A DNA stretch of 40,000 bases, from contig NZ_ATHQ01000001.1 of assembly GCF_000523275.1 (NCBI RefSeq), forward strand, positions 1,021,289 through 1,061,288, read 5' to 3'. Below are positions 1,865-31,444 of this stretch, piece by piece. Under the pieces are notes generated by a model. It searched no databases, was not told where the DNA came from, and worked only from the letters and a program-made list of their open reading frames with translations. The translations under genes were made by a program, and so were the position numbers. Each line of letters opens with the position of its first letter. Positions within the stretch are counted from its first letter, which is position 1. Source of the stretch: Lebetimonas sp. JH292 (lineage in GTDB: Bacteria > Campylobacterota > Campylobacteria > Campylobacterales > Nautiliaceae).

Positions 1865-3696
1865 AATTTAACCTCGCATAATTTTTTGATCATTTCCACA
1901 AATTCTCCTTTGCTTAATTTATATTGTTCTCTTTTTTTTCTGTCTCTTATGGCAACCAAATCATTTTCCACCTCTTCATCACCTATAATTACTACATATC
2001 CGACTCTTTGTTTTTCAGCATTTCTTATTCTTTTATTGAGTGAATCACCGCTGTCATAAATTTCGGTAATAATATCGTCATTAAGAAGTTCTTTTTGAAT
2101 TTCTTTTGCATAATTTACATGATTTTCATTGATTGGAACAAAAATCGCTTTAACAGGAGCTATAAAAGTAGGATATTCGCCTGCATAATGTTCTGTAAGG
2201 ATTGCTATAAATCTTTCAAAACTTCCAATAATCGCTCTGTGAATCATTACCGGACGTTTTTTGGTGTTGTTTTCATCAATATAATTTATGTCAAATCTTT
2301 CAGGCAGGTTAAAATCCACCTGAATTGTTCCGCATTGCCATTTTCTCCCTATTGCATCAGTAATTTTTATGTCTATTTTCGGACCGTAAAATGCCCCTCC
2401 GCCTTCGTCTATTCCATAATTTCTGTTAAGTCTGTTTAATGCACCTTTGAGGGCATTGGTTGCTTTTTCCCAAATTTCATCGCTTCCTATTGATTTTTCA
2501 GGTTTTGTAGAAATTTCCATTTCATACTCAAAGCCGAATCTTTGCATTATGGCATCTACAAATTCGAGTACTTTTATTACTTCATCTTCTATCTGATCGT
2601 CCCTGCAGAATATATGTGCGTCATCCTGGGTAAATTCCCTAACTCTTAAAAGTCCGTGTAAAACTCCGGATTTTTCGTGTCTGTGGACTGTTCCGAATTC
2701 AAAAAATCTAAGAGGCAGTTCTTTATAACTTCTTACTTTATGCCCGAAAATTTTGACATGAGAGAGGCAATTCATCGGTTTAATACCGTATTCTTCTGCA
2801 GGTTTATTAGGATCGTCGTTTTCAATTTCTGTAAAATACATATTTTCCTTGTAGTTATAATAATGCCCCGAAATTTTCCACATATGGCTTCTTAGAAGCT
2901 CAGGCCCTTTTACAGGTAGGTAATTTCTTCTTATATGGGCAGAATATAAAAGTTTTTCAAGATTGCCTCTAAGAAGTGCACCTTTTGGCAGCCAAATCGG
3001 CATTCCTGCCCCGATTTCTTCATCAAACATCCAAAGTTCAAGCTCAGTACCAAGTTTTCTGTGGTCTCTTTTTTTTGCCTCTTCAAGCATTTTAAGATAC
3101 TTTTGCAATGCCTCTTTTGTTGCAAAAGCGGTTCCGTAAATTCTTGTCAGCATCTCGTTTTTACTATCTCCTCCTAAATAGGCACCGGCAACTTTTTGAA
3201 GTTTTACGTTTTGAAGGTATTTTGTGTTTGGCACGTGAGGTCCGCGGCATAGGTCTTCAAAATCCCCCTGTTTATAAATAGAAACCTTGTCTTCATCAAT
3301 CATATCCAAAACAGCCTGTTTCAGTTCATCATCTTTAAATTTTTTTCTTGCTTCATCCATTGAAATATAATATTTTTCAATAGGGATTTTTTTCTTAGCA
3401 AGGGCTTTCATTTTCTTTTCAATATTTTTTAAATCTTTATCGGTAATGCTTTTTTGAGTTTTTAAATCATAATAAAATCCGTTTTCTATGGTAGGGCCCA
3501 CATAAAATTTTGCATCGGGATAAAGCTCTTTTACAGCCTGTGCCATTAAGTGGGCAGCTGAGTGTCTTATAAGTTCGAGTGCTTCAGAAGAGTTATCGAA
3601 AAATATTGGTTCTAAATTTTCAATACCCATTTCCTGAGCTGTTTGAATATCAATAATTTTATCATTATATTTATAACCGATTATATCGTTATGCAT
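1861..3696 (-). CDS. thrS: Threonine--tRNA ligase
   Basis: 611 aa. Second additional domain (HSAAHLMAQAV), class II catalytic motifs (FRVREFTQDDAHIF, HRAIIGSFERFIAILTEHYAG) and a C-terminal anticodon-binding domain. Confidence 0.95.
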   Translation of the reverse strand: MHNDIIGYKYNDKIIDIQTAQEMGIENLEPIFFDNSSEALELIRHSAAHLMAQAVKELYPDAKFYVGPTIENGFYYDLKTQKSITDKDLKNIEKKMKALAKKKIPIEKYYISMDEARKKFKDDELKQAVLDMIDEDKVSIYKQGDFEDLCRGPHVPNTKYLQNVKLQKVAGAYLGGDSKNEMLTRIYGTAFATKEALQKYLKMLEEAKKRDHRKLGTELELWMFDEEIGAGMPIWLPKGALLRGNLEKLLYSAHIRRNYLPVKGPELLRSHMWKISGHYYNYKENMYFTEIENDDPNKPAEEYGIKPMNCLSHVKIFGHKVRSYKELPLRFFEFGTVHRHEKSGVLHGLLRVREFTQDDAHIFCRDDQIEDEVIKVLEFVDAIMQRFGFEYEMEISTKPEKSIGSDEIWEKATNALKGALNRLNRNYGIDEGGGAFYGPKIDIKITDAIGRKWQCGTIQVDFNLPERFDINYIDENNTKKRPVMIHRAIIGSFERFIAILTEHYAGEYPTFIAPVKAIFVPINENHVNYAKEIQKELLNDDIITEIYDSGDSLNKRIRNAEKQRVGYVVIIGDEEVENDLVAIRDRKKREQYKLSKGEFVEMIKKLCEVKL

Positions 3697-3744
3697 TTTT
3701 GTCCTTTGAAGTATTTTGAAGGTTTAATAGTAGAAATAATAATC

Positions 3745-6616: not shown

Positions 6617-7966
6617 ATGAATCTGTTTAGACAAATTCCAAAAGTGGATAAACTTTTAAAAAATAAAAATCTTCAAGATATTCCAGAGAATGTTTTGCTT
6701 TATTCCATACATTCAGTTTTGAATGAACTCAGAGAAAAAATAAAAAATAATAAAATAGATAAAATAGATGAAAATAAAATAATAAATGAAATTGAAAAAA
6801 AAGCTTGCGGCATATTAAGCCCTTCTTTAATTAATGTAATTAATGCCACAGGTGTTACAATCCATACAAATCTCGGCAGAAGTTTGATAGATGAAGAGAT
6901 TTTTGATGAAGCAAAGAAAGTCAGTACGCATTACTGTAATTTAGAATATGATTTGGATAAAGGAAAAAGGGGGGACAGGTATCATCACAGTGCGAAACAT
7001 TTGAGTTTTCTTTTTGGGTGTGAAGATGCGTTGGTTGTTAATAATAATGCGGCGGCTGTATTTTTGATTTTAAACACATTTGCAAAAGACAAAGAGGTTA
7101 TAGTGTCAAGAGGCGAACTTGTTGAAATAGGGGGAAGTTTCAGAGTGCCTGAAGTTATGAAAGCAAGCGGTGTAAAACTTGTTGAAGTCGGAACTACAAA
7201 TAAAACAAAACCAAAAGATTATGAAGAGGCAATCAATGAAAATACAGCAATGCTTATGAAAGTTCACAAATCAAATTATACTATTGAAGGGTTTAGTGAA
7301 GAAGTTTATATTGATGAAATTGTCAATCTTTCCCGTAAACATAATCTGCTTGATTATTATGATTTGGGAAGTGCATATATTCCAAAGCTTCCTTACGGAC
7401 TTTCAAACGCTGAGCCTTCAATTAATGATATAATGAAATTTTTACCTTCACTTATTAGTTTTAGCGGTGATAAACTTTTTGGAGGAGTTCAGGCGGGAAT
7501 AATTCTTGGTAAAAAAGAACTTATTAATAAACTTAAAAAAAATCAGATATTAAGGATGTTCAGGGTTGATAAAATTACACTCTCCCTTATTCAGGCAACC
7601 ACTCTTGCATATATTAAAAAAGAATATGAAAAAATTCCAACCCTCAGACAGATTTTTGCATCTATTGATGAACTCAAAAACAGGGCAAAAAAAATACTTA
7701 GCCTAACACCAGCCCTAAGGGCTAATATAAAAGAATCAAAAACATACGTAGGCGGGGGGACTATGCCAAATAAAGCCATTCCTACCGTGGTAATTGAAAT
7801 TGAAGGAAATGCTGTGAATTGGGAGAAAAAATTTAGAGAAAAACTTGTTATCGGTAGAATAGAAAATGAACATTTTGTGCTTGATGTAAGAACAATTCAG
7901 GATGATGAAATAGAAAAACTTGCAAATATAATAAATAAATTAATAAGCTGTGAGGTGAAAAGATGA
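6617..7966 (+). CDS. selA: L-seryl-tRNA(Sec) selenium transferase (selenocysteine synthase)
   Basis: 449 aa. INATGVTIHTNLGRS and the PLP-lysine motif FSGDKLFGGVQAGII match SelA. The stop overlaps the selB start (ATGA). Confidence 0.93.
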   Translation: MNLFRQIPKVDKLLKNKNLQDIPENVLLYSIHSVLNELREKIKNNKIDKIDENKIINEIEKKACGILSPSLINVINATGVTIHTNLGRSLIDEEIFDEAKKVSTHYCNLEYDLDKGKRGDRYHHSAKHLSFLFGCEDALVVNNNAAAVFLILNTFAKDKEVIVSRGELVEIGGSFRVPEVMKASGVKLVEVGTTNKTKPKDYEEAINENTAMLMKVHKSNYTIEGFSEEVYIDEIVNLSRKHNLLDYYDLGSAYIPKLPYGLSNAEPSINDIMKFLPSLISFSGDKLFGGVQAGIILGKKELINKLKKNQILRMFRVDKITLSLIQATTLAYIKKEYEKIPTLRQIFASIDELKNRAKKILSLTPALRANIKESKTYVGGGTMPNKAIPTVVIEIEGNAVNWEKKFREKLVIGRIENEHFVLDVRTIQDDEIEKLANIINKLISCEVKR

Positions 7967-9792
7967 GAAATATTATTATTGGAACCGCAGGGCATGTAGA
8001 CCATGGAAAAACATCTTTGATTGAGGCTATGACCGGGTATAACGGGGACGAGCTTAAAGAAGAAAAAGAGAGAGGAATTACAATCGATTTAAGCTTTACA
8101 AATATGAAAAGAGATGATGTAAATGTGGCATTTATAGACGTTCCGGGGCATGAAAAACTTGTAAAAAATATGATTAGCGGGGCGTTTGGATTTGACGCTA
8201 CGCTTTTTGCAATAGATGCAAACGAAGGTGTTATGCCGCAGACCATAGAGCATTTGGAAGTACTTGATATTTTAAAAGTTAAAAATATCATTGTGGCTTT
8301 GACAAAAATAGATTTGGCAAGTGAAGAAATTATTGAAAAAAGAAAAAAAGAGATAAAAGAATTAATAGCTAAATTTAAGAATTTAAAGCTTCTTGATATT
8401 ATCCCGACTTCCACTAAAATGCCTGAGACTATAGAAAATCTTAAGAATTATCTGTTTAACCTGCCTCCGAGAAATATTACACATTCCAAATTTTTCAGAT
8501 ACTATATAGACAGGGTGTTTTCCCTAAAAGGAATAGGAACTGTTGTAACAGGGACTGTTTTAAGCGGAAAAGTCAGACTTAAAGATAAAGTTTATATTAA
8601 TGAAACGGCTACTGTTACAACGGTTAAAAACCTGCAGGTTCATGGTGAAAATGTTAGTGTTGCCCATACCCATCAAAGACTTGCCATTAATCTCAATATT
8701 TCACACAATGAACTTAAAAAAGGATATTTGTTAAGTACAAAAGGATACTTAAGAGGATTTAAATTAATTGATGTTTATATTTCCCCGGTCGAAGGTAAAG
8801 AAATTAAGCATAATATGGGAGTTTTATTTATAAGCGGTGCAAAAAGAATACCTGCGAAAATTTTGATGTTTGATTCAAATGCAAAAGAAGGTTTTGCAAC
8901 TATGAAGTTGCAGGAAAAAGGATTTTTTGTTTATGAAGATCCGTTTGTGGTGCTTCATAAAGGAAGGGTTATCGGAGGAGGCGAAATTTTAAATCCTATA
9001 AGCGACCCTATTAAAAGAAATAAAAAATTATTGCTGTTAAATGCTTTAAAACAAAGGGATTTCCAAAAAGCATTTTCTATTTTGGTTGAAAATCACAAAA
9101 AAGGTTTCGGACTTCTTCAAAGTTATCAGAGATTTAATTTTTCGCCCGATGAAGCTCTCGGTATTGCAAAAACATTAAAAAATGTCTTTATAGATGAAGA
9201 AAATTATAATATTTTTTCAATGGATGTAAAAAAAGAGATAGAAAATGTGGTAAAAGAAACTTATGAAAAAAACAAATTTGCCTTTCTTTCTCCTGCATCA
9301 CTGAAACTCAGATTAAAATGGGCGAGTGAAAAATTGATTGAAACTGTTTTAAATGAATTTGTGGAAGAAGGATTTTTAATAAAAGAAGGCAATATTTATA
9401 AAAGAAAAGATCTTGGTGAAGTGAATATTGAAAAATCAGTCGAGCACAGGCTTTATTCGCTTTTGGATAATTCTGGATTAACTCCCGAAGCACCTTATAA
9501 TATATACGAAAAATTAAATATTGACAGAAAAGTGGGCGATCAGGCTATGAAGAACCTGACTAAGGCTAAAAAAGTTGTAAGGCTTGCCCATAATTTGTTT
9601 GTAAGTGATAAAAATATAAATTATGCAATGAAAAAAATGCGGGAAATTATGGAGAAAAAAGGATATATTGATATTAAAACATTTAAAGAAGAGATGCCTA
9701 TGAGCAGAAAATATATTGTGGCTTATCTTGATTATTTGGACAATATGGGGGATATTGTTAAAGTAGATAATAAAAGGTATTTGAAGAAATAA
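7963..9792 (+). CDS. selB: Selenocysteine-specific elongation factor SelB
   Basis: 609 aa. GTPase motifs GTAGHVDHGKTSL, DVPGHEKL and TKID, followed by a long C-terminal winged-helix extension typical of bacterial SelB (SECIS binding). Confidence 0.93.
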   Translation: MRNIIIGTAGHVDHGKTSLIEAMTGYNGDELKEEKERGITIDLSFTNMKRDDVNVAFIDVPGHEKLVKNMISGAFGFDATLFAIDANEGVMPQTIEHLEVLDILKVKNIIVALTKIDLASEEIIEKRKKEIKELIAKFKNLKLLDIIPTSTKMPETIENLKNYLFNLPPRNITHSKFFRYYIDRVFSLKGIGTVVTGTVLSGKVRLKDKVYINETATVTTVKNLQVHGENVSVAHTHQRLAINLNISHNELKKGYLLSTKGYLRGFKLIDVYISPVEGKEIKHNMGVLFISGAKRIPAKILMFDSNAKEGFATMKLQEKGFFVYEDPFVVLHKGRVIGGGEILNPISDPIKRNKKLLLLNALKQRDFQKAFSILVENHKKGFGLLQSYQRFNFSPDEALGIAKTLKNVFIDEENYNIFSMDVKKEIENVVKETYEKNKFAFLSPASLKLRLKWASEKLIETVLNEFVEEGFLIKEGNIYKRKDLGEVNIEKSVEHRLYSLLDNSGLTPEAPYNIYEKLNIDRKVGDQAMKNLTKAKKVVRLAHNLFVSDKNINYAMKKMREIMEKKGYIDIKTFKEEMPMSRKYIVAYLDYLDNMGDIVKVDNKRYLKK

Positions 9793-9802: not shown

Positions 9803-10846
9803 TTATTTAACAACTAAAGGAAACTCTTTGAATTCCTTAACAGTTGCTATTGCTTTAGCACTCACTCCTTCATTTTCCATTCTTTTTAAAAGTTCATTAA
9901 CTTTTTCCTGAGAGGCGCTGATTAAAAGCCCTCCGCTTGTCTGGGCATCAAATAGTATCATCTGCTCTTCAAAACTGAGTTCTTTTTCAAATTTTACTTT
10001 TCCTTCTAAAAATAGCTGGTTATTGTAACTTCCGGCAGGAATTATTCCCATGGATGCCTGATTAATCGCTTCTTTTAAGAAAGGCACTTTTTCAAATTCT
10101 ATTTCTATAGTGAAATTGTTAGCGCTCATTTCATACAAATGTCCTAAAAGACCAAATCCTGTAACATCTGTCATTGCATTTACACCGATTTCCCTTGCGA
10201 TAAGACTTGGTTTGTAATTTAATGTCCTTAAAATTTCAGCTACTTCACTGGCTACTGTTTTATCTATCAAATCCGCTTTTATTGCTGTTGTTAAAATTCC
10301 CATTCCAAGAGGTTTTGTTAAAACAATTACATCATCTTTTTTTAATGTATTGTTTCTTATAATTTTTTGAGGATGAATTGTACCTGTAACGCTAAGTCCG
10401 TAAATCATTTCCGGAGTTTCTATTGTATGTCCTCCGGCTAATACACCGCCGCACTCTTTTATTTTATTTTCACCGCCTTTTAAAATTTCATTTAATACAT
10501 CTTTTCCGTGATGACAGTTATCAAATCCGACTAAATTAAGGGCAGTTTTAACATCTCCTCCCATTGCAAACACATCGCTTAGGGAATTTGCAGCTGCAAT
10601 TTGTCCGTAAATAAACGGGTCGTCAACAACAGGTGTAATAAAATCGGCTGTTTGTACAAGTGCTATATCATCTGTTAATTTATAAACACTTGCATCCTCA
10701 TTTCCTTCAAATCCGACTATTAAATTTTCGTTTTTTCCATCAAGAACTTTTGTAGCTTTGTTTAGCTCCTCCGGAGCCAATTTCCCTGCTCAGCCGGCTG
10801 CTCTTACATATTTTGTAAGTTTGGCGTTGTTATTTAATTTAAGCAT
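9803..10846 (-). CDS. selD: Selenide, water dikinase (selenophosphate synthetase), selenocysteine-containing form
   Basis: The ORF track starts at 10780. Reading upstream in frame gives ATG (10846-10844) [31 protein letters not shown], with TGA at 10792-10790 as codon 19. This aligns with the E. coli SelD active-site loop (..YSHGAGCGCKI..). An RBS (AAAGGA) lies 6 nt before this ATG. The rest of the protein is the PurM-like SelD fold ([23 protein letters not shown]). Confidence 0.9.
10762..10780 (-). promoter_or_regulatory. SECIS-like hairpin downstream of the selD UGA
   Basis: On the minus strand, 10 nt after the UGA: TTGGCTCC-GGA-GGAGCTAA. That is 8 bp including one G-U pair, or 7 bp with the loop CGGAG. 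Confidence 0.55.
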
Positions 10847-10855: not shown

Positions 10856-11212
10856 TTAAAATGTTATAACTTTGTCTGCTTCTTCAACCCAGGCAGCCAA
10901 GTCTTTCATTGTAGCTTTGATTTCAGGTGCAAAATATGGCTCGTTTTTAAATAATCCGCATCTTGCCTGACAAGTGCCGCATACTTTTAATTTTATACCG
11001 TTTTGATACATTTCTTTAAGCATTGCAACCAAGTCGTTGTCATAATTTTCAGGTTTTTTATTGCAATCCCTTGCCATATCCACGGCATCATTCATTAAAA
11101 AAATTCTTACATCGTTTCCTTTTTCAAACAAAACTTTTGCAAGTCTAAGTCCGTTCCAAGCTACATCGCTTCCGTCATATGGTTCGTGATTGAATATAAT
11201 TAAAATTTTCAT
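10856..11212 (-). CDS. DsrE/DsrF-like (YchN-fold) sulfur/selenium relay family protein
   Basis: 118 aa. MKILIIFNHEPYDGSDVAWNGLRLA... and the conserved Cys region KLKVCGTCQARCG are typical of the DsrE/YchN fold. It ends 9 nt upstream of the selD ATG. Confidence 0.75.
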   Translation of the reverse strand: MKILIIFNHEPYDGSDVAWNGLRLAKVLFEKGNDVRIFLMNDAVDMARDCNKKPENYDNDLVAMLKEMYQNGIKLKVCGTCQARCGLFKNEPYFAPEIKATMKDLAAWVEEADKVITF

Positions 11213-11490
11213 TTAACCTCCTTAATTTCTTTTATTTTTCCTTTATAACCTACGATTTCTATTGCGTGTAACAGTTTTTGAGGTGTTGTTTTTGTATCGT
11301 CAAAAATTACCGTTGCTATTTTAGTGTTTAGTAGTACTTTTGCTTTTATAACGCCCGGTGTCATTTTTAAACTTCTTTTTACAGCCATTGTACATAATGG
11401 ACAAGTCATTCCACTTACTTTAATAATAGCCACTTTTTCAGCTCCAAAAAGTGAACAAAATAATACTAAATTTAAAATAATTTTTTTCAT
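11209..11490 (-). CDS. Periplasmic heavy-metal-associated (HMA) domain protein, MerP-like
   Basis: 93 aa. Signal peptide MKKIILNLVLFCSLFGA followed by an HMA fold with GMTCPLC. There is a 4-nt overlap (ATGA) with the downstream DsrE-like gene. Confidence 0.8.
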   Translation of the reverse strand: MKKIILNLVLFCSLFGAEKVAIIKVSGMTCPLCTMAVKRSLKMTPGVIKAKVLLNTKIATVIFDDTKTTPQKLLHAIEIVGYKGKIKEIKEVK

Positions 11491-12075
11491 TTACTCTCCC
11501 ATAAACAGATATTGAGCCCAAAAAGGGTAAGTTAGCATAATTAATACAAAAACAGTACCAATACTTAAATATTTTACATAATTTTTGCAAATACTGCCAC
11601 TGCAAACCGGTCTTTTTCTAAGTTTAAAGAAATAATTTATCCACAAATAAACAATAATTATAACAGCTGCAATTGTAAAATAAATTCTATATGGTGCGAA
11701 AATATGTAAAAATGAAAGACTTCCGACACTTACTCCAAAAATCAAAAAAAGCAAAGGCCCTAAACAGCATGTGCTTGCCAAAATTGCAGTTATTGCCGCA
11801 CCTGCTATTAAAGCCCAAAAAGATTTTGATTTTTTACTTTCATTTTGAATTTCGCAACTGTAACCTTTTATAGCATTTATTATTGTATCTTTTCCTTCTT
11901 TTTTTTCATTAAAATAAATTCCTTGCGTTTGCAAAAATCTTTTTACATTCTGAATAGAAGAGAAGGAATTAAGTTTTATTTCAATAATTCCTTCTTCTAT
12001 TTCTTCTAATGCCTCTTTTGTTTTAAGAACAGGTTCTGGACAAGCTAAATTTCTTAAATCCAGCTTTTTTACCAT
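11491..12075 (-). CDS. Fusion protein: N-terminal TusA/SirA-like domain + C-terminal MerT-like three-helix membrane domain
   Basis: 194 aa. Residues 1-80 form a TusA fold with LRNLACPEPVLKTKEAL (CPxP motif). Residues 85-194 contain TM1 with the vicinal Cys pair ILASTCCLGPLLFLIFG (MerT signature), TM2, the loop RKRPVCSGSICKNY (second Cys pair) and TM3. Confidence 0.75.
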   Translation of the reverse strand: MVKKLDLRNLACPEPVLKTKEALEEIEEGIIEIKLNSFSSIQNVKRFLQTQGIYFNEKKEGKDTIINAIKGYSCEIQNESKKSKSFWALIAGAAITAILASTCCLGPLLFLIFGVSVGSLSFLHIFAPYRIYFTIAAVIIIVYLWINYFFKLRKRPVCSGSICKNYVKYLSIGTVFVLIMLTYPFWAQYLFMGE

Positions 12076-13199
12076 TAAAACAGTTCCTGAGAAGTAATTT
12101 TATATTCAAAACTTTTTGGAACATAATAATTTAACACATCATCATTTACCTCGGCATACGGATAACCAAACATATTTAGAGGGTATTGAACAGGTTTTGG
12201 ATAAAGTATGAAATCTCTTGCATGGTTAAATCCAACCCAGTTCATTTCCCATGAATGCAGATATTTTTTTACTAATTTTTGAACTTTTGGGTGGTTGTAA
12301 GGATATTTTTCAACTAATTCAAGTTTTGTAACATCAGCAGGGTCTGTAGGTATCCATCCAGCCCCTGGAATATAATATTCAGCCCTGCAGTGTTGCCAAG
12401 TGGTAATATTTGCAAAACCTTTACTATCACTTTTTCCAAGAGCTTTGTCAAAATGGCTTTTTCCAAGTCTGATACCAAAAACCTCTCTTGCAGGAATACC
12501 TGCCGCTCTTGTTAGGGCGGTAAAAAGTGAGCTTAAATCTGTACATTTTCCTCCAAACCATCCGTTTTTATAAATATATTCAGCTGTCGGTTTTTTTTGC
12601 TCTTGCATCATTTTGCCAACTTCACCTTTTCCGCATCCAATAGTTTTTGGATTTCTGAATGTATGGGCTGTACACCATAAATAAATTGCTTTTACTTTTT
12701 CAAACCTATCTTTTTTACCTTTTGTGATAAGTTCTGCCACTTCTTTTACAATTCCGTCAGTAGGAATATGGGCAGTAGGCTCAAGATATTTTAACACTTC
12801 TTTTGGATATGGCAGATTTTTTTTGCTGGCTTCTTTTATTAGTTCTAATGGAACACTTCTATCTTTTGTTTCAATTTCCATTTCCATTGTCAAAATTTTA
12901 GGCATAGCTGATTTTTCCCAATATGCATAAAAAGTATTTGCATCATATTCATTTTTATTGTTAATATCATAATCGTTATAATTTCCGCCAAATCTTAAAA
13001 ATTTAACTTTTTGATATGGTGCATTATATGGAAGCGGGTTCCATAATCTTGCAGGAAAACCTGGCTCGTCGTATTTGATGTTGAAATAATATTCAACCTT
13101 GAATCTTCTATAGCTTTCATCTTTTGCACTTACAATACCAGGTATAGAAACTGCCATACCTAAGGCTGCACCTGTTTTTAAAAACTCTCTTCTTTCCAT
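12075..13199 (-). CDS. TAT-exported transglutaminase-like cysteine protease-fold protein
   Basis: 374 aa. Twin-arginine signal MERREFLKTGAALGMAVSIPGIVSA. Transglutaminase-core triad context: GGKCTDLSSLFTALTRAAGIPAREVFG (Cys), WQHCRAEYYIPGAGW (His), IPTDPAD (Asp). Confidence 0.8.
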   Translation of the reverse strand: MERREFLKTGAALGMAVSIPGIVSAKDESYRRFKVEYYFNIKYDEPGFPARLWNPLPYNAPYQKVKFLRFGGNYNDYDINNKNEYDANTFYAYWEKSAMPKILTMEMEIETKDRSVPLELIKEASKKNLPYPKEVLKYLEPTAHIPTDGIVKEVAELITKGKKDRFEKVKAIYLWCTAHTFRNPKTIGCGKGEVGKMMQEQKKPTAEYIYKNGWFGGKCTDLSSLFTALTRAAGIPAREVFGIRLGKSHFDKALGKSDSKGFANITTWQHCRAEYYIPGAGWIPTDPADVTKLELVEKYPYNHPKVQKLVKKYLHSWEMNWVGFNHARDFILYPKPVQYPLNMFGYPYAEVNDDVLNYYVPKSFEYKITSQELF

Positions 13200-13211: not shown

Positions 13212-15970
13212 TTAAATTTTTTGTATTTTTATTTTTGTTGAACTAAAATCTGGTATACCTCCGATCGGATCAACCAAAGGTAAATCATAAAATTTTTTGT
13301 CTAATTTACTAATTTTATTTACACAAATTCCCATTGCTCTTTTTTTATCAGGAATTACGTAATTATTTTTAGTAACAAATAAGCACAGCATCCTTTGGCA
13401 ACAAAACATTTACTATTTTTACTTTGTCATAGTCTTTTAATCCTAATTTTTTAGCATCAATTGGGTTTATTTTTAATGTAATATCTGGTTCGTAATAAAG
13501 GGCTTTATCTAAACATATAGTTCTTGATTGTGTATGTAATGCCGATTTGTATGATGTTAAATAGAAATTTTTTTCTCCTATTATGGTATTTGTAGAAGTT
13601 GCAAGTTTTTCATTATATATATGTATTTTTTCAAAACCAAATATATAATTGTCATTTTCATCAAACCAATTGTTCTCTTTAAATACACCTCCTTTTGCTA
13701 AAACATTACATACTTTTTCCCATTCTTCTGATTGTAAAATATGTTTGTGTTTTGTAACAATATAATTTTTTTCTACATAATCAATAGTTTTTTTATCAGC
13801 CTTAGATATTTTTGCATTGTGTGCAAGATTGTAAATACCTCTTAGATAATAATCTTCTTGGGTATTTAAAGAAAATTTATTGTTTATAGCTTTTTCTCCA
13901 TAACCAGGTAATTTTAATTTTTTAGAAAGGTCAATCAAAAATTTTTCTAAATTAATATTATTTTTTGTGAGAGGCTCTATTATAGGTGTTCTAACACCAG
14001 TAAAATGACCTCCAGGAGCATGTGGATTTAAAAAGCCATAATGTCCTGTCTTAATCTGCATAGATATTTGTTTCATTAATAGTTGTGTCTATTGATACAA
14101 ACAGAGGAACTTTTGTTTTATTTTTTAACGTAGATTCAAATCTGTATCCTCCAGGCAGGATATTTTTGGTCTATACCGCTCATTGCGGCTACACTTAATC
14201 CTCCTTTAGTAATAAATATCCTCCTTTTCTGTTTACATTTCCAATTAATGCATTTAACATAGAAATTGCATAACTTGCATAAGTTCCGTTTATATAGTTT
14301 CCTCCTCCATGATACGCAAAAGCTGCACTGTGTGGGGCAATGTTTTTTTTATTAACTCCGCATTCTTTAGCATAATCATCAATTGAATGTTCAAAAACAG
14401 AGTTTTTCATTATTTTAAATGCTGTAACTACTTTATTTTACCTTCATATTCTAATATTGTATTTTTAGAATAAGTTTTCCAATTTTCCATAAAATCATCA
14501 TTTTTTAGTCCAATATCTGACCCTCTTAAAAATTTTCCATAATTTTTGTTTTCTTTATCAATTATTACTAAATGTGTAGCATTTGAAAATGTTGATCTTT
14601 TTTTATTTTTAGCTTCTTCTAAGTTTTTTTCTAAGAGAATTGCTTTTGGAGCTTTTGGATCAATTAATACGATTTTTAAATCATTATTTGCAGTTCTTTT
14701 TGCAATTATACTTCCTGATGTATTTACTCCGAATAAATATTAGCACCAAATATTAACATATATTTACAATTTTGAAAATCTGCCTTCATTTCAGCTTCTT
14801 TTCCGTCTGTAAAAGCGTAATTACCCATTCTAAAGCCGATACCACATATATCAGTATGTGCAATATAATTTTTTGAACCGATAGAATTATAAACCCATCT
14901 TTTTATAAAATCTACTCTTCCTCCTTGGGAACGTCCTGTAAACCATACAAATTGGTTTCTTTTAGAACCTAATTCTTCAGCTTCTTTTCAGATAAAATAT
15001 CTTTTATGCCTGGATAATATGTTTCATCCCCTAAATGTTTAAAATTTTTACCTCCGAAAGCTATTTCATTTATTAAAGTATCCCAATCTATAGGTTCGAA
15101 TTTTCCGCTTCCTCTTTCACCGTTTTTAAAGGTTTTGTTATTCTGTAAGGATTATAAACATATTCATTATTCATTTGCGGTTTTGCACACGTTGATGCTG
15201 AATATTTAAAACTTTTTTCTATATCTGTTGAATAAGAAATTTGGTTGAAATCTCTATTATATGGGTGATAAGGATTTCCATCAACTTGTACACATTTGTT
15301 GTCTTTAACGGCTATTCTTAAACCGCATCTTGCATTACAAGCTAAACAGACGGTATTTACTATTTTATCTGCTTTTGGTTTTTTTGTTTCATAAAATCCA
15401 TATTTTTCTTTATAAATAGGTGTAACATCAGTAAAAGTCGCTAAATGGTGATAAAGTGCATATTTTAAAGTTGGATTGTTTTCTAGAAGTTCTTTTAATT
15501 GTCCTTTAGGATTTTTAAGATTTCCATAAACTAAAGCCCCGCCTGGGCAAATACTGACACATCTTGGAATGTCTCCTTGAATAATTCTGTCAAAACACAT
15601 ATCGCATTTTTTTGCTTTTTTATCAAAAACTATAGCGTCAAAAGGACAGGCTTTAGCACAACTTTGTTTATTTTCGGCACAATTGATATCACATTTGTCT
15701 TCATTTATTAATATAACTCCATCTTTTGCACAAATTGCAATATATTCAAACGCTCGGCACAAAAGTTTTTATTTTGAAAAACACTACATCATAAGGAAGA
15801 TTTTTTTCAAGTTGACATGCTGCCATACAGCTTTTGCAGTCTAAACATCTGCTTTGGTCATATATTAAAACAGGCATAAATTCATTTTCTTCAGCATTAG
15901 CAAATTTAAATGTTGTTGTGCTGATTAAAACACTAAATGCTCCAATTTTTAAAAACTCTCTTCTTTCCAT
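13212..15970 (-). pseudogene. Decayed gene for a TAT-signal 4Fe-4S ferredoxin fused to a Mo/W-bisPGD (DMSO-reductase-superfamily, Psr/Phs/Ttr-like) oxidoreductase
   Basis: Stitching the minus-strand frames gives one continuous homolog: MERREFLK (TAT), CLDCKSCMAAC, CAKACP, CDMC...CVSICP (ferredoxin), CLACNARCG (MopB N-terminal cluster), ITKPLK/GERGSGKFEPIDWDTLINEIA, FVWFTGRSQGG, YIAHTDICGIGF (Cys ligand region), MLIFGANIY, IVLIDP, VVTAFKIMKNSVFEHSIDDYAKECGVNKKNI, GNVNRKGG, VPLFVSIDTTINETNIYAD, KLGLKDYDKVKIVN, DPIGGIPDFSSTKIKIQKI. At least 8-9 frame breaks or stops interrupt it, near 15746-15781, 15121-15133, 14981-14992, 14722-14740, 14428-14442, 14192-14210, 14158-14170, 14048-14063 and 13369-13409, mostly in A/T runs. 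Confidence 0.8.
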
Positions 15971-15978: not shown

Positions 15979-16569
15979 TTATAAGCTAATAGTATTTTTG
16001 TGAAGTAGAAAGTCCATTGTGTCGTATGCGTTTCCTATTTCTCCGACTTTTAGCTCTTCTGGAGGAATTTTGTAAAAATTCATACAAACGCCGCATGAAT
16101 AAATTTTTACGCCTCTTTTTTCAAATTCTTTTAAAATTTCTATTGTTTTTTCATTTTTTGTTGTTAAAAATACACCTCTGTTTACACATACAATAATTTC
16201 AGGAAGTTTTTTAAATTCAAGTGTTGTTTTTAAAAATCCTTCTATTAATATGTGTCCAAGCTCGCCTTCTCCAACTTTGTCATCTTTTATAAAAAGCACC
16301 TTATCTAAAAATTTATCATTATCTTCTTCTTTTGGTGCAATACTGCATTCATAACCTTTTACAATCCTGATTATGGTTTCACCATTATCCAGTTTTTCTT
16401 CTTCTGCAACCAGTCCCTGGTTTGCCGCAAATCTTTTAACGTTTTGAACAGATGAAATAGAATTTACCAAAACCTCCAAAATTCCTTCGTCCATCTCTTC
16501 AAGTGCTTTTTTTGTATCAAGCACAGGTTTTGGACATGCCGCATTTCTGCAGTCTATTTTTTTATTCAT
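15979..16569 (-). CDS. yedF: YedF-like selenium-metabolism-associated protein (TusA/SirA-like N-domain + DsrE-like C-domain)
   Basis: 196 aa. The N-terminus CRNAACPKPVLDTKKALEEMDEG (CPxP) is paralogous to the N-domain of 11491..12075. The C-terminal half, with IIVCVNRGVFL and KIYSCGVCMNFY, is DsrE-like. Length and architecture fit the roughly 200-aa YedF family (TIGR03527, recalled from memory). Confidence 0.72.
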   Translation of the reverse strand: MNKKIDCRNAACPKPVLDTKKALEEMDEGILEVLVNSISSVQNVKRFAANQGLVAEEEKLDNGETIIRIVKGYECSIAPKEEDNDKFLDKVLFIKDDKVGEGELGHILIEGFLKTTLEFKKLPEIIVCVNRGVFLTTKNEKTIEILKEFEKRGVKIYSCGVCMNFYKIPPEELKVGEIGNAYDTMDFLLHKNTISL

Positions 16570-17329
16570 TTGTTACTCCTTTTGTTGTTTCGTATCCGGC
16601 AAGAGCCGCTCCGAATGCCCCCATCATCTGAGGATATTCCGGTGTGTATACTTCTTTTTTTAATTTTTTTGAAAGCAATTCCCTAAGAAGTGAATTTTTA
16701 GCTCCTCCCCCGGTAAAAACGATTTTGTCTTCCGGTCTAATGCTTTTGGCCATTCCGGCTAATCTTGATGCTATTGAATCAATAATTCCGTATCCTATAT
16801 TTTCAGGCTTTTCTTTTTTTGCCATAAGAGAAATTACTTCTGATTCGGCAAATACCGCACACATTGAAGATATCTGGATTGTTTTGTCAGCTTTTTTACA
16901 AAAATCTCCAAACTCATCAAGCGGAATCTGGAGTTTTACAGCCGCCATTTCTATAAATTTTCCGGTTCCGGCCGCACATTTGTCGTTCATTTTGAAATTA
17001 TCAAAATTTCCGCCTTCGGTTACTTTTATTACCTTGCTGTCCTGTCCTCCTAAATCAATAACAGTTCTTACATCCGGAAAGAAAAAATAAGCCCCTTTTG
17101 CATGGGCTTTTATTTCGCTGATTACAGGAACGTCAAACGCTTCTTGCATCATATATCTTCCATAACCTGTTGCAACCAGGGTTTCAATAGGTTTATCTTT
17201 TAAATATTCTTTTACCTGTTCGTCGGGATTTATAACGGTATCTAATACTTTAATGTCAATTATGTTTTTATTATCATCAATTCCAACAATTTTTGTATAG
17301 GTTGAGCCTATGTCAACTCCGTAATACAT
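16562..17329 (-). CDS. BcrAD/BadFG-type ATPase: activator of a (R)-2-hydroxyacyl-CoA dehydratase-like or double-cubane reductase
   Basis: 255 aa. ASKHA fold with GVDIGSTYTKIV and DLGGQDSKVI. The two cluster-bridging Cys contexts are MNDKCAAGTGKF and ISSMCAVFAESEV, and FTGGGAKN is present. Confidence 0.85.
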   Translation of the reverse strand: MYYGVDIGSTYTKIVGIDDNKNIIDIKVLDTVINPDEQVKEYLKDKPIETLVATGYGRYMMQEAFDVPVISEIKAHAKGAYFFFPDVRTVIDLGGQDSKVIKVTEGGNFDNFKMNDKCAAGTGKFIEMAAVKLQIPLDEFGDFCKKADKTIQISSMCAVFAESEVISLMAKKEKPENIGYGIIDSIASRLAGMAKSIRPEDKIVFTGGGAKNSLLRELLSKKLKKEVYTPEYPQMMGAFGAALAGYETTKGVTNE

Positions 17330-18642
17330 TAAAATCCTTTAAATTTAACGTTCTTTTTAAATGAAATACTTTCCAAAAACGCTTCAACTCTTGTTTTAAT
17401 CTGACCCATATCTTCCATTGAATAATCAGATTCAATTCTTAAAACAGGAATATTTTCAGCCTGAAGTCTGTCTATTACTCTTTTTGATTCCACGTTGTAT
17501 GTATGACAAAAAGAGAGTGAATAATAAATAATACCGTCAGCTTTTCTTTCTTTATACATTTTGATTATTTTATCTATTCTATCATCATTTGGAGTAAAGC
17601 ATGCACAGTCTATTTTCATATATCTATCAAGCATATTATTCATTAAATCATCAATAGTTTCAGCTCCTTGGGTTTCAATATTGTCTTTATAATATCTGTG
17701 TCCGATACATGCTTCTTCGTTTATTATTACTCCACCGGTTGTTTCAACAATATGATGAAGCTTCCAGTTTGGAGGTGCCATAGGTGTTCCAATTACCATA
17801 ATTCTCGGAGTATCTTTTTTTACAACAGAAACGCATTTTTTAATTCTTTCTTCAAGTTCGTCGCAAAGTTCATTTACTTTTTGTGTAAATCTTTCAGGGT
17901 CGTCATAAAAAGAGATTTGGTTAATTAAAAGTCCGTCTTTTCCGCTGATAGGTACAACATCAGGATACATGCCCCTTAATTTGTCAAGACGCTGCATGGC
18001 TTCTCTTTTTTTGTTTATAATTTCAATTCCCTTTTTAAGCTCTTCAAATGTAAGTTCTTTTCCTATAATTGATTCAATGTGTTTTTTAAAATCATAAACT
18101 TCACTTTTCCAAAGTTCTTTTTCTTTTTCTCTTTTCATTTGAGGAATATGCATTACATGAGTTGGGTGCAATTCGTTTAAAATTTCCCATGTTTTTTTCT
18201 TAGCTTCGCAGCTTGTTTCCCCGTATATAAAATCTGAAGCCTGTGTATACGGACATGTTTTTTGAACTTTAAATCCATACGCAGATTTAATTAAAGGGCA
18301 TATATTTCTTGGCAAATCTCTTTCGGCATCTGCAATAGAAAATTCAGCCCCGCCGCATAATCCGTAACATACTCCATCAGCCCCGACAACAATTTCTTCC
18401 GGGACAAATATACAAAAAGTTCCAACTAAAGGTTTTCCTTCTTTTTTCTTTTCTAAAATTTCTTCTATTCTTTTACCGTGTATTTCACTCATTACATAAT
18501 CAAAATATTCCATTGCTTTTGGTCTGTTTTCCTGCTTTAAAAAAAATTCAGGATATATTTCACCCAGAGCAGCCAAAAGTTCATTGTGTTTTTCTATATC
18601 CATACCAAGTTCTTGATACATAGGTGTGTAATCTTTAGACAT
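17329..18642 (-). CDS. 2-hydroxyacyl-CoA dehydratase (HGD-D) family protein, single-subunit type; candidate double-cubane-cluster reductase
   Basis: 437 aa, Cys-rich ([58 protein letters not shown]). A single HGD-D gene paired with one activator ATPase, rather than an alpha/beta pair, matches the DCCP arrangement. Confidence 0.75.
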
Positions 18643-18836: not shown

Positions 18837-19478
18837 TTATTGTAAATAATTTTTTAATTTTTTCATATCTATAATGATGTATTTGTCTTTGCCGATTTTT
18901 TTCAAAATTTTTTCTTTTATCAGTTGATTAAAAAATTTGGAAGTAGTCTGTCTTTGCGAACCGATAAAAGTTGCCAAATCTTTTATGCTTAAAGATAAGT
19001 CTATTTCAATACCTTCATCAGTTTTTTTACCGCTTTTTTTTGCAATTTCCAAAAGAAATGAAATTATTCTTCTTTTGCAGTTTTCAAAAACCAAGCCTTT
19101 AATAATATCTTTTTCAACCATCATAATATTTCTGAATGAATTTAATACAGAATTACAAAACATAGGATTATCGAAAACGGCAGGATGTTTTGTAACATCA
19201 AGAGATAAAACAACGGAGTCGCTTAGAAATTCAATTATAGATTCCGGATGCATTACATATATATTATTTTTCGATAAAAAATATAATATAAATTCTTTGT
19301 CTTCATATAAAAAAGAAACTTTTGCTTCACCTTCTTTAAAAATTAACAGTTTTGTTTTTTCTTCAGGATAAAATATTTCCCCTTTTTTAAAATGCATTTT
19401 TACAAATTTTGATAAATCTTCTTTACTCAAAATTTTTTCTATATCAAAACTGTCAATTTTAATTCTGCAAAATTTCAT
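18837..19478 (-). CDS. Crp/Fnr-family transcriptional regulator
   Basis: 213 aa. N-terminal cNMP-binding-like beta-roll and C-terminal HTH (LSIKDLATFIGSQRQTTSKFFNQLIKEKIL). It lacks the N-terminal Cys cluster of true FNR. It is divergent from fdhF. Confidence 0.8.
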   Translation of the reverse strand: MKFCRIKIDSFDIEKILSKEDLSKFVKMHFKKGEIFYPEEKTKLLIFKEGEAKVSFLYEDKEFILYFLSKNNIYVMHPESIIEFLSDSVVLSLDVTKHPAVFDNPMFCNSVLNSFRNIMMVEKDIIKGLVFENCKRRIISFLLEIAKKSGKKTDEGIEIDLSLSIKDLATFIGSQRQTTSKFFNQLIKEKILKKIGKDKYIIIDMKKLKNYLQ

Positions 19479-19614: not shown

Positions 19615-21846
19615 ATGACAAAAGTACAAACCACATGTCCTTATTGTGGGACAGGTTGTAATATAGATTTGATTGTTGAAAACGGAAGAGTCGTTAAAGC
19701 GGAAGGCACTAAAAACCATCCTGTAAATGACGGTGAATTGTGTTTAAAAGGTATGTTTGGATGGGAATATATACATTCTCCAAAAAGACTGACCAAACCT
19801 TTAATCAGAAAAAAATATGGTAAATATTCAAGAGATGGACGTTTGGAAGAATCTTCATGGGAAGAAGCATACGCTCTTGTTGCTTCAAAATTAAAAGAAA
19901 CTGTTGAAAAATATTCATCTGATAGCGTTGTAGGTTTTTCATCAGCAAGATGTACAAATGAAGAAAATTATATTTTTCAAAAATTTATAAGGGCACTTGG
20001 TTCAAATAATGTAGACCACTGTGCTCGTTTTTGACACGGTCCTACAGTAGCCGGTCTGGCTAAAACACTTGGAAGCGGGACTATGACAAACGATTTGGCG
20101 GAATTTGCAACAGATACGGATGTGTTTTTATTAATAGGTACAAATACAAGTGAATGCCATCCTATAATCGCTATGCAGGTTTTAAGAGGCCTTGAGAGAG
20201 GTGCAAAGCTTGTTGTAATTGACATTAAAAAAACAGATATGGCAAAAAAAGCGGATGTATTTATCCAGATACCGAGCGGATATAATATACCTTTAATTAA
20301 TGCAATGATAAATTATATTATTCAAAACAATTTATATGATAAAGAATTTGTTGAGAAATATACAAACGGATTCGAATGGTTAAAAGAAACAGTTAAAGAT
20401 TTTACATTTGAAAAAGTGGAAAAAGAAACAGGTGTGTCAAAAGAACTTTTGATTGAAGCTACTGAATTATATGCAAAAGGTAATCCTTCCGCAATACTTT
20501 ATACAATGGGAATTACCCAGTTTATAGACGGAACATATAATGTAATGGATGTTTCAAACCTTGCAATTGTTACTGGGAATTTAGGTAAAAAAGGAGGAGG
20601 TGTCAATCCCCTAAGAGGCCAAAACAATGTTCAGGGTGCAGGTGATATGGGCGCTCTTCCTGGTGATTTGCCAAATGGAAAAGTGACTGATCCAAAAGCC
20701 CGTGAAAAAGCTGAGGAAATTTGGGGATTTAAAATAAATCCAATTCCAGGCTTAAAACTTTCTCAAGTACCTCATGCAATTGATGAGGGAAAAGTGAAAT
20801 TTTTATATATTTTTGGAGAAAATCCTGTAATGAGCGATCCGTGGACGGAACATTTTATTCACGCTTTGAAAAAAACAGATTTTATAGTTGTTCAGGATAT
20901 TTTTCTTACAGAAACAGCCCAGGAAGCGGATGTTGTATTGCCAAGTGCGTGCTGGGGTGAAAAAGACGGAACATTTAGTAACACTTCAAGAAAAGTTCAA
21001 TTGGTAAGAAAAGCTGTTGAGCCTCCTGCAAATTTAAATCCAGACTGGAAAGTAATCTGTAATGTAGCAAACAGAGTAGGGTTAAAAGGCTTTAATTTCA
21101 ATACGGCTGAGGAAATTTGGAATGAAGTCAGAAAATTAAACCCTTTCAAATTTAAAGGGATTACTTATGAAAGAATGGCTAAATTAAACGGAATAAACTG
21201 GCCTTGTCCTGATGAAGATCATCAGGGAACTCCTTATTTGTATGAAGATAACAAATCTTTTTTACCTGACGGAAAATTCAAACTTGTACCTATTGGTTAT
21301 ACATTAGATAAAAATGAAAGAATTGTTTTAGAAAATAAATTAAGAAAAACTTTTAATATTCCTGATGATTATCCTGTAGGCGTTGGGTGTCCTAGTGAAC
21401 AGCCTACAGAAGAATATCCTTGTATGTACACAACAGGTAGGAAAGTTTATCATTATCATACAGGAACAATGACAAGAAAATGCAAACCTCTTGAAATGGG
21501 TGCAGATATTATGGGACCTGTTATTGAGGTCAGCGAAGATATAGCAAGAGAAAGAAATTTGGAGAATGGATGCTATGCCGTGGTTTATAATAAAAGAGGA
21601 AAGATTGCTGCAAAAGTATTGGTAAATAAAGACTTAAGATACGGAACTATATTTACCACATTTCATTATGCGGAAGCAGACGGAAACGAACTTACCAATG
21701 CAGAGGAATCAGACCCGGTATCAGGAATGCCGCCACTTAAAATGTCAATAGCGGATATTAAAAAAATTTCCGAAGAAGAATTTTTAAAAATAAGAACAGA
21801 AATTCTTAGAGAAATAGAACCTGAAATTATTGAAAGGAGGGGTTAA
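19615..21846 (+). CDS. fdhF: Formate dehydrogenase H-type catalytic subunit (cytoplasmic, Mo/W-bisPGD), selenocysteine-containing
   Basis: The two ORF-track pieces (19615..20034 and 20083..21846) are in the same frame, separated only by TGA at 20032-20034. Read-through gives [30 protein letters not shown], the canonical FDH active-site Sec context. The N-terminus has TCPYCGTGC with no TAT signal. Confidence 0.92.
20035..20075 (+). promoter_or_regulatory. Bacterial SECIS element of fdhF
   Basis: UGA CAC GGU CCU ACA GUA GCC GGU CUG GCU A. The apical hairpin is UAGCC-GGUCU-GGCUA (20048-20062). The loop sequence and spacing closely parallel the E. coli fdhF SECIS (..GUUGCA GGUCU GCAC..). Confidence 0.65.
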
Positions 21847-21847
21847 A

Positions 21848-22420: not shown

Positions 22421-22423
22421 AAA

Positions 22424-24394: not shown

Positions 24395-24406
24395 AAGGAG
24401 AAAGCT

Positions 24407-25333: not shown

Positions 25334-25334
25334 A

Positions 25335-25979: not shown

Positions 25980-25982
25980 ATT

Positions 25983-27464: not shown

Positions 27465-27473
27465 GGAGAAATT

Positions 27474-29210: not shown

Positions 29211-29219
29211 GAGTTAAAA

Positions 29220-30580: not shown

Positions 30581-30918
30581 TTGAGGTAAACAGATTAACC
30601 AAAAGGCATGTGGACAAACCTAAAAAAATGCCAAGAGAGTTAGAGCAGATTAAAATATTTTCCACTCTTACAGGACATGGGGTGGGTACTATTGATTTTG
30701 TCGAGTGTGTTATGAAACTTGAAGATGAAGAATTTAATAATATTTTGGAAAATTCAAAAGATTATGCCAAATTTAAACTGGGTAATCTTTTGAAATACAG
30801 GGAAATAGAAATTTTTCCCGAACATATTGAGAAATTAAAAGATTCAATGGCTGAATGTGAATTAAAAAATCTTTTTTTATCCTTAAAAGAGGGATATTTT
30901 GTATTAAGGCTGAAATAA
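30577..30918 (+). CDS. hycH: HycH/HyfJ-like formate hydrogenlyase maturation protein
   Basis: 113 aa. The position and the motif LTGHGVGTIDF (compare HycH AIGHHVGVIDC) support the call, but the similarity is modest. Confidence 0.6.
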   Translation: MIEVNRLTKRHVDKPKKMPRELEQIKIFSTLTGHGVGTIDFVECVMKLEDEEFNNILENSKDYAKFKLGNLLKYREIEIFPEHIEKLKDSMAECELKNLFLSLKEGYFVLRLK

Positions 30919-31358: not shown

Positions 31359-31368
31359 ATTTTTTTAA

Positions 31369-31390: not shown

Positions 31391-31444
31391 CTTTTTTAAT
31401 TCATTATAAACTTTTATGTATTTAAATTTTAAAAAGGAGTAAAA

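Follow-up and report, generated by a model that had tools for sequence, protein, structure and literature searches.

Within a 40,000-nucleotide stretch of the Lebetimonas sp. JH292 genome (assembly GCF_000523275.1, contig NZ_ATHQ01000001.1, positions 1,021,289 to 1,061,288), which we call the window, lies a cassette of three genes coding for a transglutaminase-like protein exported by the twin-arginine translocation (TAT) pathway, a fusion of a TusA-like domain to a MerT-type membrane domain, and a MerP-like protein. We consider it reasonably probable that this cassette is the core of a selenium acquisition system that feeds the selenophosphate synthetase SelD, working as a cysteine-relay importer for periplasmic selenium. 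An initial annotation had described the MerP-like protein and the fusion as a transport pair placed next to selD and co-opted for a thiophilic chalcogen instead of mercury. The notion of a Cys-pair relay importer for a chalcogen finds support in the present analysis, and the choice of selenium over sulfur or a soft metal is one that we infer from gene context. The cassette, the two genes that follow it, and a separate yedF gene upstream are laid out in the window as follows.

15979 to 16569, minus strand: YedF, full length, with TusA-like and DsrE-like domains (TIGR03527, 193.1 bits against a cutoff of 110; Pfam TusA and DsrE)
12075 to 13199, minus strand: TAT-exported transglutaminase-like protein (Pfam Transglut_core)
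11491 to 12075, minus strand: TusA::MerT fusion, 194 amino acids (Pfam TusA and MerT, NCBIfam)
11209 to 11490, minus strand: MerP-like HMA protein, 93 amino acids (Pfam HMA, TIGR02052)
10856 to 11212, minus strand: DsrE-family protein, 118 amino acids, with a CGTCQARC motif (Pfam DsrE, 75.2 bits)
9803 to 10846, minus strand: SelD, selenophosphate synthetase (TIGR00476, 335.7 bits)

From 13199 down to 9803, neighboring genes abut or overlap. The stop codon of the transglutaminase-like gene overlaps the start codon of the TusA::MerT gene, and the DsrE-family gene overlaps the MerP-like gene by 4 nucleotides. SelD is thus in the same gene string as the proposed transport pair, but not directly beside it, as the DsrE-family gene lies between the MerP-like gene and selD. 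A scan found no terminator-like sites on the minus (coding) strand among these genes; promoter and terminator sites in the operon were no more common than in shuffled sequence, and the AT-rich DNA makes such a scan uninformative.

A genome scan yielded 77 loci, nearly all from Campylobacterota of vents and sediments, and these were searched with the window proteins and reference Mer proteins. Six of these are real mer operons or fragments of them (L069, L070, L072, L073, L075, and L076; Aquificaceae and one deltaproteobacterium), and the other 71 are the cassette loci. The transglutaminase-like gene lies immediately upstream of MerT in 57 of 57 loci with sufficient flank, and the MerP-like gene lies immediately downstream of MerT in 67 of 67, so that the conserved unit consists of three genes, not two. 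The pair described earlier is therefore sound as far as the MerP-like gene is concerned, which always follows MerT, but it leaves out the transglutaminase-like gene that always comes first.

SelD was encoded within 10 kb of the cassette in 28 of the 71 loci, and in 9 of the 15 in which both flanks reach at least 9 kb; by our own estimate, for one gene in a genome of ~2 Mb, a linkage of ~1% would be expected by chance. At least six distinct gene orders preserve this linkage. SelD can follow on the same strand, with or without a DsrE gene in between, follow on the opposite strand, or lie upstream in divergent orientation. In Arcobacter and Malaciobacter, selB-selA-selD lies upstream of the cassette, and in two loci (L067 and L068) the order is TGase-MerT-MerP-SelD-SelA-SelB-YedF, where TGase is the transglutaminase-like protein. 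In Caminibacter mediatlanticus (L082), the genes Crp-selA-selB-yedF-TGase-tusA::merT-HMA-dsrE-selD all run in one direction. A divergent clade of fusions in Sulfuricurvum and Sulfurimonas (P0239) has the order selU-selD-TGase-tusA::merT-HMA, its SelU being MnmH (353.7 bits against a cutoff of 241). Since the Sulfuricurvum operon serves selenouridine and not selenocysteine, the cassette follows SelD itself, not one selenium-using pathway. When neighbors were tabulated, as had been suggested, the only recurrent and functionally coherent ones were selD, selU, selA/selB, and yedF; among the cassette neighbors, no cys, isc, suf, or tus genes were recurrent. There are also stand-alone cassettes.

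The fusion protein itself comprises two recognizable domains. Its N-terminal part matched TusA (PF01206) over residues 3 to 64 with 59.9 bits against a cutoff of 28.6, and its C-terminal part matched MerT (PF02411) over residues 81 to 190, covering model positions 3 to 115 of 116, with 47.1 bits against a cutoff of 32.9. The TusA domain takes up residues 1 to 75 (nucleotides 11851 to 12075) and is followed by a flexible linker and a three-helix MerT domain at residues 81 to 194 (nucleotides 11494 to 11835). In a BLASTP alignment to a Tn501-type MerT (32% identity), C103/C104 fell on C24/C25 and C158/C163 on C76/C82. Across 30 members of the fusion family, C12, P15, C103, C104, and C158 were invariant, P13 and C163 were at least 90% conserved, and C74 was conserved. 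An AlphaFold2 (AF2) model placed helices at residues 82 to 113, 127 to 152, and 166 to 192, with a well-predicted TusA domain and a low-confidence linker at residues 75 to 79. The cutoffs passed, the aligned Cys pairs, the three helices, and the invariant C12 bear out what had been said of this protein from the first, namely, that a complete TusA domain with its CPxP cysteine stands at the N terminus of a MerT domain.

The TusA domain and the second Cys pair also lie on the same side of the membrane. Averaged over the 30 sequences, Lys plus Arg numbered 5.2 in the loop between transmembrane helices 2 and 3 (TM2-TM3), which holds the second Cys pair, vs 0.4 in the TM1-TM2 loop, and the segment preceding TM1 was basic as well. 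This distribution, together with hydropathy, places the N terminus inside, so that the TusA domain and the C158/C163 loop are both cytoplasmic, as in MerT. A topology check of this kind had been suggested with a view to whether the TusA cysteine could reach the second Cys pair, and it puts both on the cytoplasmic side.

The fold of the fused domain is that of the TusA family at large. Foldseek gave a target-normalized TM score of 0.85 to the SirA-like protein 3HZ7 and 0.79 to E. coli TusA in 3LVJ, the IscS-TusA complex, and the modeled domain superposes on YeeD in the YeeE-YeeD structure 8K1R. At the sequence level, its affinities are narrower. BLASTP aligned it at 51% identity over 88 residues with the N-terminal domain of the window YedF, whose gene lies 4 kb away and which shares the CPxP and KGYxC (C74) motifs, and its closest nonfusion relatives are two-domain proteins of YedF length, not short stand-alone TusA proteins. 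The YedF model TIGR03527, which NCBIfam names a selenium metabolism protein, matched the fusion over model positions 1 to 81 only, with 57.8 bits, and its cutoff of 110 was not reached. As judged by these comparisons, the fused "TusA" domain is the N-terminal half of YedF, with the C-terminal half of YedF replaced by MerT. The earlier identification of the acceptor as a sulfur or selenium carrier domain stands in this more specific form, with the added restriction that the fusion is optional. The TusA domain was present in 44 of the 71 cassette loci and absent in 27, of which a few are cut at a contig edge, so that ~40% have a plain MerT.

These same features allow another explanation, in which the cassette imports sulfur (sulfane sulfur, polysulfide, or a thiosulfate-derived species) and the relay gives persulfide to the TusA domain for tRNA thiolation, for sulfuration of the molybdenum cofactor and formate dehydrogenase, and for Fe-S clusters, with selenium being adventitious. 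Sulfur relay is the established role of the TusA and DsrE families, and in fold the domain resembles IscS-TusA and YeeE-YeeD; the hosts are sulfur-metabolizing vent Campylobacterota, SoxB is encoded a few kilobases from the cassette in five loci, roughly half of the well-flanked cassettes have no nearby selD, and FdhD and MoeA are encoded in the window. We nevertheless regard sulfur import as unlikely, given that the coherent recurrent neighbors are all selenium genes, with none from the cys, isc, suf, or tus sets, and that the fused domain groups with YedF, whose occurrence tracks that of SelD (PMC5322559), and not with stand-alone TusA. In the sulfide-rich habitats where these organisms probably live, moreover, a high-affinity sulfur scavenger would seem unnecessary.

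Two further neighbors were observed in subsets of loci. A SoxB-like TAT protein is encoded 1.5 to 5 kb upstream of the cassette in L008, L012, L023, L026, and L037; four of these five loci have no nearby selD, and in L008 selD lies ~460 bp from MerT. This proximity may stem from synteny that close relatives have in common, or it may indicate a link to sulfur. A HAD-family protein of 155 amino acids, similar to the soluble domain of P-type ATPases, adjoins SelD in 13 related loci (L003, positions 3278 to 3742, and 12 others).

The 93-amino-acid protein encoded after the fusion is MerP-like, as first described. It scored 51.9 bits against HMA (PF00403), above the Pfam threshold, is 41% identical to a plasmid MerP, and has a GMTCPLC motif whose C30 and C33 were invariant in 72 of 72 relatives; its signal peptide was assigned by inspection only. 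The MerP model TIGR02052 aligns with it from end to end, leader included, at 61.2 bits against an equivalog cutoff of 92.55. The gene that follows it codes for the DsrE-family protein, whose CGxC-type motif shows a weak, local resemblance to the part of the YedF C-terminal domain around its CGxC. A DsrE-family gene between the MerP-like gene and SelD occurs only in the window, L001, L002, L004, L045, and Caminibacter L082, making it a lineage-specific addition to the cassette in Nautiliaceae. It is suggestive, though only that, that in this family the two halves of a YedF-like protein appear split between the transporter and a separate DsrE-family gene.

By profile, the fusion belongs to the Pfam MerT family, and NCBI gives the family the protein name "mercuric transporter MerT family." Its MerT part scored only 51.3 bits against the NCBIfam MerT equivalog model NF010314, for which the cutoff is 150. 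Nor is the context that of a mer operon. The initial annotation had seen no mercuric reductase or MerR in the 40 kb, and we came to the same result: a tblastn search of the window for MerA and MerR with references from a Klebsiella plasmid mer operon matched the HMA domain only, and both proteins were absent from Pfam and NCBIfam scans of nearly all larger open reading frames (ORFs). Neither merA nor merR was found at any of the 71 cassette loci, a result that answers the concern that the fusion family might usually travel with them. One MerA-like neighbor, at L064, proved to be a dihydrolipoyl dehydrogenase (467.6 bits against a cutoff of 408.8). The mer-operon loci carry MerT-MerP-MerA or MerR, and in most of them MerT is only ~31 to 35% identical to the window MerT; in a neighbor-joining (NJ) tree, the MerT proteins of true MerT-MerP-MerA operons from Aquificaceae (L069, L070, L073, and L075) branch outside the main cassette clade. 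Because it lacks a mer operon context and falls below the NCBIfam equivalog threshold, the protein should not be classed among mercury transporters.

This bears directly on the possibility that the cassette takes up or handles a soft metal, either Hg(II) or Cu(I), Ag, or Cd, with its cytoplasmic partner encoded elsewhere and with the selD linkage reflecting metal-selenium antagonism or being historical. The signature Cys residues and the topology of MerT and MerP are fully kept, the Pfam thresholds for MerT and HMA are passed, the NCBI name points to mercury, and hydrothermal vents are rich in metals and in mercury. Soft-metal uptake is quite unlikely all the same. No MerA, MerR, MerB, or metal-efflux ATPase was found in the window or the 71 cassette loci, both proteins fall far below the equivalog cutoffs (MerT, 51 vs 150; MerP, 61 vs 92.55), and the mer operons of Aquificaceae have a MerT branch of their own. 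The fused acceptor belongs to the chalcogen carriers and not to the HMA or NmerA domains, and importing a toxic metal with no reductase or sink would make no physiological sense.

The first protein of the cassette scored 69.6 bits against Transglut_core (PF01841) and only weakly, at 18.6 bits, against TAT_signal. Its leader carries the twin-arginine motif RREFLK and is followed by an N-terminal beta-sandwich and the transglutaminase core. The triad C219-H270-D286 was invariant in 66 loci, distant clades included, and so were C189 and C271, the latter adjoining the catalytic His. No other cassette member is as well conserved; its identity is 59 to 77% across the relatives listed. The AF2 model (pLDDT, 82; pTM, 0.83) found its best Foldseek match in the Protein Data Bank (PDB) in 3ISR, a structural-genomics entry for an uncharacterized putative Cys protease, and otherwise matched generic transglutaminases; a PDB sequence search with this protein gave no significant match. 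A low-pKa thiolate together with additional thiols would suit the capture of selenite, by Painter-type chemistry, or of Se(0) or polyselenide.

The prominence of thiols on the periplasmic side could also point to a thiol-disulfide relay of the CcdA/DsbD kind, in which the Cys pairs of MerT would carry electrons and keep the periplasmic transglutaminase-like and HMA proteins reduced. Such a relay would account for a small membrane protein with a Cys pair at each face, for periplasmic partners that depend on invariant thiols, and for a periplasmic enzyme that is the most conserved component. We judge it very unlikely, because the conserved core contains no thioredoxin-fold partner on either side of the membrane, some clades have a degenerate second Cys pair, and a TusA domain with a single Cys is an atom carrier; MerT homologues, likewise, are known to carry Hg(II), not electrons. 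The SelD linkage would also be left unexplained unless selenium entered by another route.

For selenium import, a chemically explicit route can be drawn. The retained Cys pairs could carry selenium by the same ligand-exchange steps as mercury because a selenotrisulfide, Cys-S-Se-S-Cys, is the formal analogue of linear Hg(SR)2. In the periplasm, the transglutaminase-like enzyme (C219-H270-D286, C189, and C271) would capture or activate selenium species on thiols. Selenium bound by two thiols could then pass to C30/C33 of the MerP-like protein, from there to the vicinal pair C103/C104 in TM1 of MerT, and on to C158/C163 in the cytoplasmic loop. The TusA-like domain, tethered on the cytoplasmic side, would take it up on C12, possibly with C74, and perhaps as a perselenide, before delivering it to SelD, either directly or through the CxxC proteins of the DsrE-like or YedF type, for the synthesis of selenophosphate. 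The selenophosphate would go into selenocysteine by way of SelA and SelB, the selenoproteins here being FdhA and SelD, or, in Sulfuricurvum, into selenouridine by way of SelU.

Alternatively, the relay might run outward, as it is chemically reversible in principle, and export or detoxify excess cytoplasmic selenide; YedE was once suggested as a possible selenium exporter (PMC5322559). We find this highly improbable. The cassette forms operons with genes that consume selenium (selD, selU, and selAB), not with stress or efflux genes, and selenium is a trace nutrient at vents, where the demand for selenoproteins is high in these genomes, FdhA and SelD both being selenocysteine (Sec) proteins. Characterized MerT and MerP proteins act inward. 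Export and the thiol-disulfide relay fit less of the evidence than does the import of selenium into the SelD pathway.

A number of points weigh against selenium import. The Cys motifs of the MerT and MerP-like proteins are exactly those of Hg(II) transporters, so that Hg, Cu(I), Cd, or Ag would very likely bind, and a side activity of the cassette toward Hg(II) is likely. We know of no established role in selenium metabolism for the HMA fold. TusA and DsrE proteins carry mainly sulfur, and it is not obvious that a thiol relay would tell sulfur from selenium. Of the well-flanked cassettes, about half lack a selD within 10 kb, and some of these lie near soxB or unrelated signaling genes. The second Cys pair takes the form CxC in the MerT of Arcobacter and Malaciobacter and in the divergent fusion P0239, and a single Cys is present at this place in L067 and L068. 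The AF2 model of the fusion has a pTM of 0.43, and its TusA-MerT interdomain geometry is unreliable. Lastly, the loci are mostly metagenome-assembled genomes (MAGs) from a few vent studies and from one phylum, and their counts cannot be treated as independent.

The fusion family comprises only ~96 clusters at 90% identity, all of them with both domains; the best protein match, at 98%, was from Lebetimonas. An exhaustive HMMER pass over 1.84 billion representatives returned 8 hits at an E value of 1e-30 or lower and 4 full-length fusion clusters at 50% identity. The Sulfuricurvum/Sulfurimonas fusion P0239 was found only by the exhaustive search, and no relative of a second divergent fusion, P0237, turned up in the metagenome scan. 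Fused and unfused MerT domains are interspersed in the NJ tree, which makes repeated gain or loss of the fusion more likely; the tree disfavors a single origin only weakly, being built from short sequences and having no support values. The linker between the TusA and MerT domains is ~11 residues long in Nautiliaceae vs ~45 in a Nitratifractor-like clade, where it includes a conserved segment of the AEALRAAQIA type, perhaps an additional helix or a docking element. Truncated tblastn hits in L030, L066, L068, and L074 were considered as possible selenocysteine-containing MerT variants and discarded, as the first two are frameshifted, the other two read through in frame, and there is no TGA at Cys positions. 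The shifted MerT frames in the MAG loci L030 (10001 to 10640) and L066 (9995 to 10400) reflect either assembly error or gene decay.

The surroundings of the cassette in the window comprise the remaining genes of the minus-strand string, the regulator upstream of it, and genes on the plus strand on both sides.

18837 to 19478, minus strand: Crp/Fnr-family regulator (Pfam HTH_Crp_2), 5' of the gene string
17329 to 18642, minus strand: double-cubane-cluster reductase (NF040772, 476 bits against a cutoff of 350), heading the string of genes
16562 to 17329, minus strand: activase ATPase of the acyl-CoA-dehydratase type (TIGR00241, 248 bits)
13212 to 15970, minus strand: broken gene for a TtrB-like ferredoxin::TtrA-like molybdopterin oxidoreductase, in at least five short ORFs with TtrA or TtrB fragments
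6617 to 7966, plus strand: selA (TIGR00474, 544 bits), convergent with selD
7963 to 9792, plus strand: selB (TIGR00475, 320 bits), convergent with selD
19615 to 33279, plus strand: formate hydrogenlyase-like cluster with Sec-FdhA, ferredoxin, Mrp/complex-I-type membrane subunits, FocA, and FdhD
31445 to 32323, plus strand: FocA, in the formate hydrogenlyase-like cluster
32491 to 33279, plus strand: FdhD, in the formate hydrogenlyase-like cluster

Two of the selenium-related genes in the window are themselves read through in-frame TGA codons. SelD is a selenoprotein by its read-through translation (TGA at 10790 to 10792, AAG-U-AGK), and so is the catalytic subunit of formate dehydrogenase (TGA at 20032 to 20034, CARF-U-HGP), which ORF calling splits into 19615 to 20034 and 20083 to 21846. 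With a Sec-containing SelD, selA and selB, and a Sec formate dehydrogenase cluster side by side, the window is an island of both selenium supply and selenium use. MoeA is encoded in it as well.

The reading frames of the double-cubane reductase, the activase ATPase, and YedF all overlap, with the activase directly 5' of YedF. The activase and the reductase possibly belong to the selenium pathway, although their membership is uncertain; the same families are given as YedF associated in a STRING table for Slackia (PMC5322559). One possibility is that the pair acts on selenium as a low-potential reductase driven by ATP. The Crp/Fnr-family regulator also stands beside selenium genes in Caminibacter (L082, 3131 to 3772) and is a candidate operon regulator in both Lebetimonas and Caminibacter. 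The TtrB::TtrA-like remnant, which sits between YedF and the cassette, is probably a pseudogene. An unbroken orthologue of 1,143 amino acids is present in a related Nautiliaceae MAG (L001, 4174 to 7605), the gene was not found in L002 or Caminibacter L082, and it is likely a decaying optional gene.

Specific acquisition of trace selenium by bacteria is an open question. According to a 2026 review, no specific prokaryotic selenium transporter is known, and YedE and YedF are still predictions. In full-text literature searches, no paper turned up that describes this cassette or ties MerT-like or transglutaminase-like genes to the uptake of selenium; what came closest were the MerT-family selenoproteins and the STRING table entry. 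The cassette is a concrete candidate for a selenium importer with an explicit chemical mechanism. If it is one, the MerT/MerP scaffold is not mercury specific, and metagenomic surveys of mercury resistance that count merT and merP would have to allow for this, since many such genes are automatically annotated as "mercuric transporter MerT family protein." A function would also be given to a large and very conserved family of TAT-exported transglutaminase-like proteins. A bolder version, to which we would give somewhat less than even weight, is that the cassette is the first dedicated high-affinity system for selenium uptake in prokaryotes, in which a transglutaminase fold captures selenium, a Mer-type relay passes it on as a protein-bound selenotrisulfide or perselenide and never as a free ion, and a YedF-type domain channels it to SelD. 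Mercury uptake and selenium uptake would then be two branches of one ancient "thiophilic atom relay."

Among known systems, the closest in build is the MerT/MerP pair of mer operons such as those of Tn501 and Tn21. Shared with it are the three-helix, N-in PF02411 fold with both Cys pairs aligned residue for residue, an adjacent periplasmic HMA protein with an apparent signal peptide and a GMTCxxC motif, and the order merT then merP. Identity is only ~32% for MerT and 41% for MerP, however, with scores below the NCBIfam equivalog cutoffs, and the cassette never occurs with merR, merA, merC, or merD. Also unlike mer operons, it always begins with the gene for the TAT-exported transglutaminase-like protein, is linked to selD, selU, and selAB, and has as its acceptor a fused YedF-type TusA domain in place of the NmerA domain of MerA. 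The MerT and HMA families also include selenoproteins cataloged by NCBI, to whose profiles there were weak matches: NF045683 (MerT/CopZ fusion-like selenoprotein; 40 bits) and NF041115 (UxxU metal-binding protein; 60 bits). Proteins of these types use selenocysteine as a metal ligand and are read as heavy-metal handlers (bioRxiv 10.1101/2022.07.06.499078; PMC13188914), whereas the cassette proteins are all-Cys and their link is to the supply of selenium, not to selenium content.

The dependence of a transporter on a TusA-like acceptor has a precedent in thiosulfate uptake by YeeE (TsuA), which needs the TusA-like YeeD (TsuB) with its catalytic Cys and for which crystal structures were obtained from YeeE-YeeD fusions (PMC11073785). 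As in that system, a cytoplasmic TusA-like Cys would here take a chalcogen off a membrane transporter, and the cassette, if it works as proposed, would be the second natural case after YeeE-YeeD. The membrane part differs, belonging to the three-TM MerT family and not to PF04143 (Sulf_transp, YeeE/YedE), which had no match in the fusion or in any scanned ORF of the window; two periplasmic thiol proteins are added, and the context is selenium, not cysteine synthesis. YedE and YedF (FdhT and FdhU), a predicted pair for selenium transport and handling, are linked to selD and the Sec machinery (PMC5322559), a linkage that the cassette shares. The fused domain is, by sequence, the N-terminal domain of YedF, and in Nautiliaceae the DsrE-family CxxC protein gives something like the missing C-terminal half. 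Here MerT stands in place of YedE, a separate yedF gene is present as well, and YedE/YedF has no counterpart to the periplasmic partners. Taken together, these comparisons suggest by analogy a system whose architecture is like that of MerT/MerP and whose logic is like that of YeeE/YeeD and YedE/YedF.

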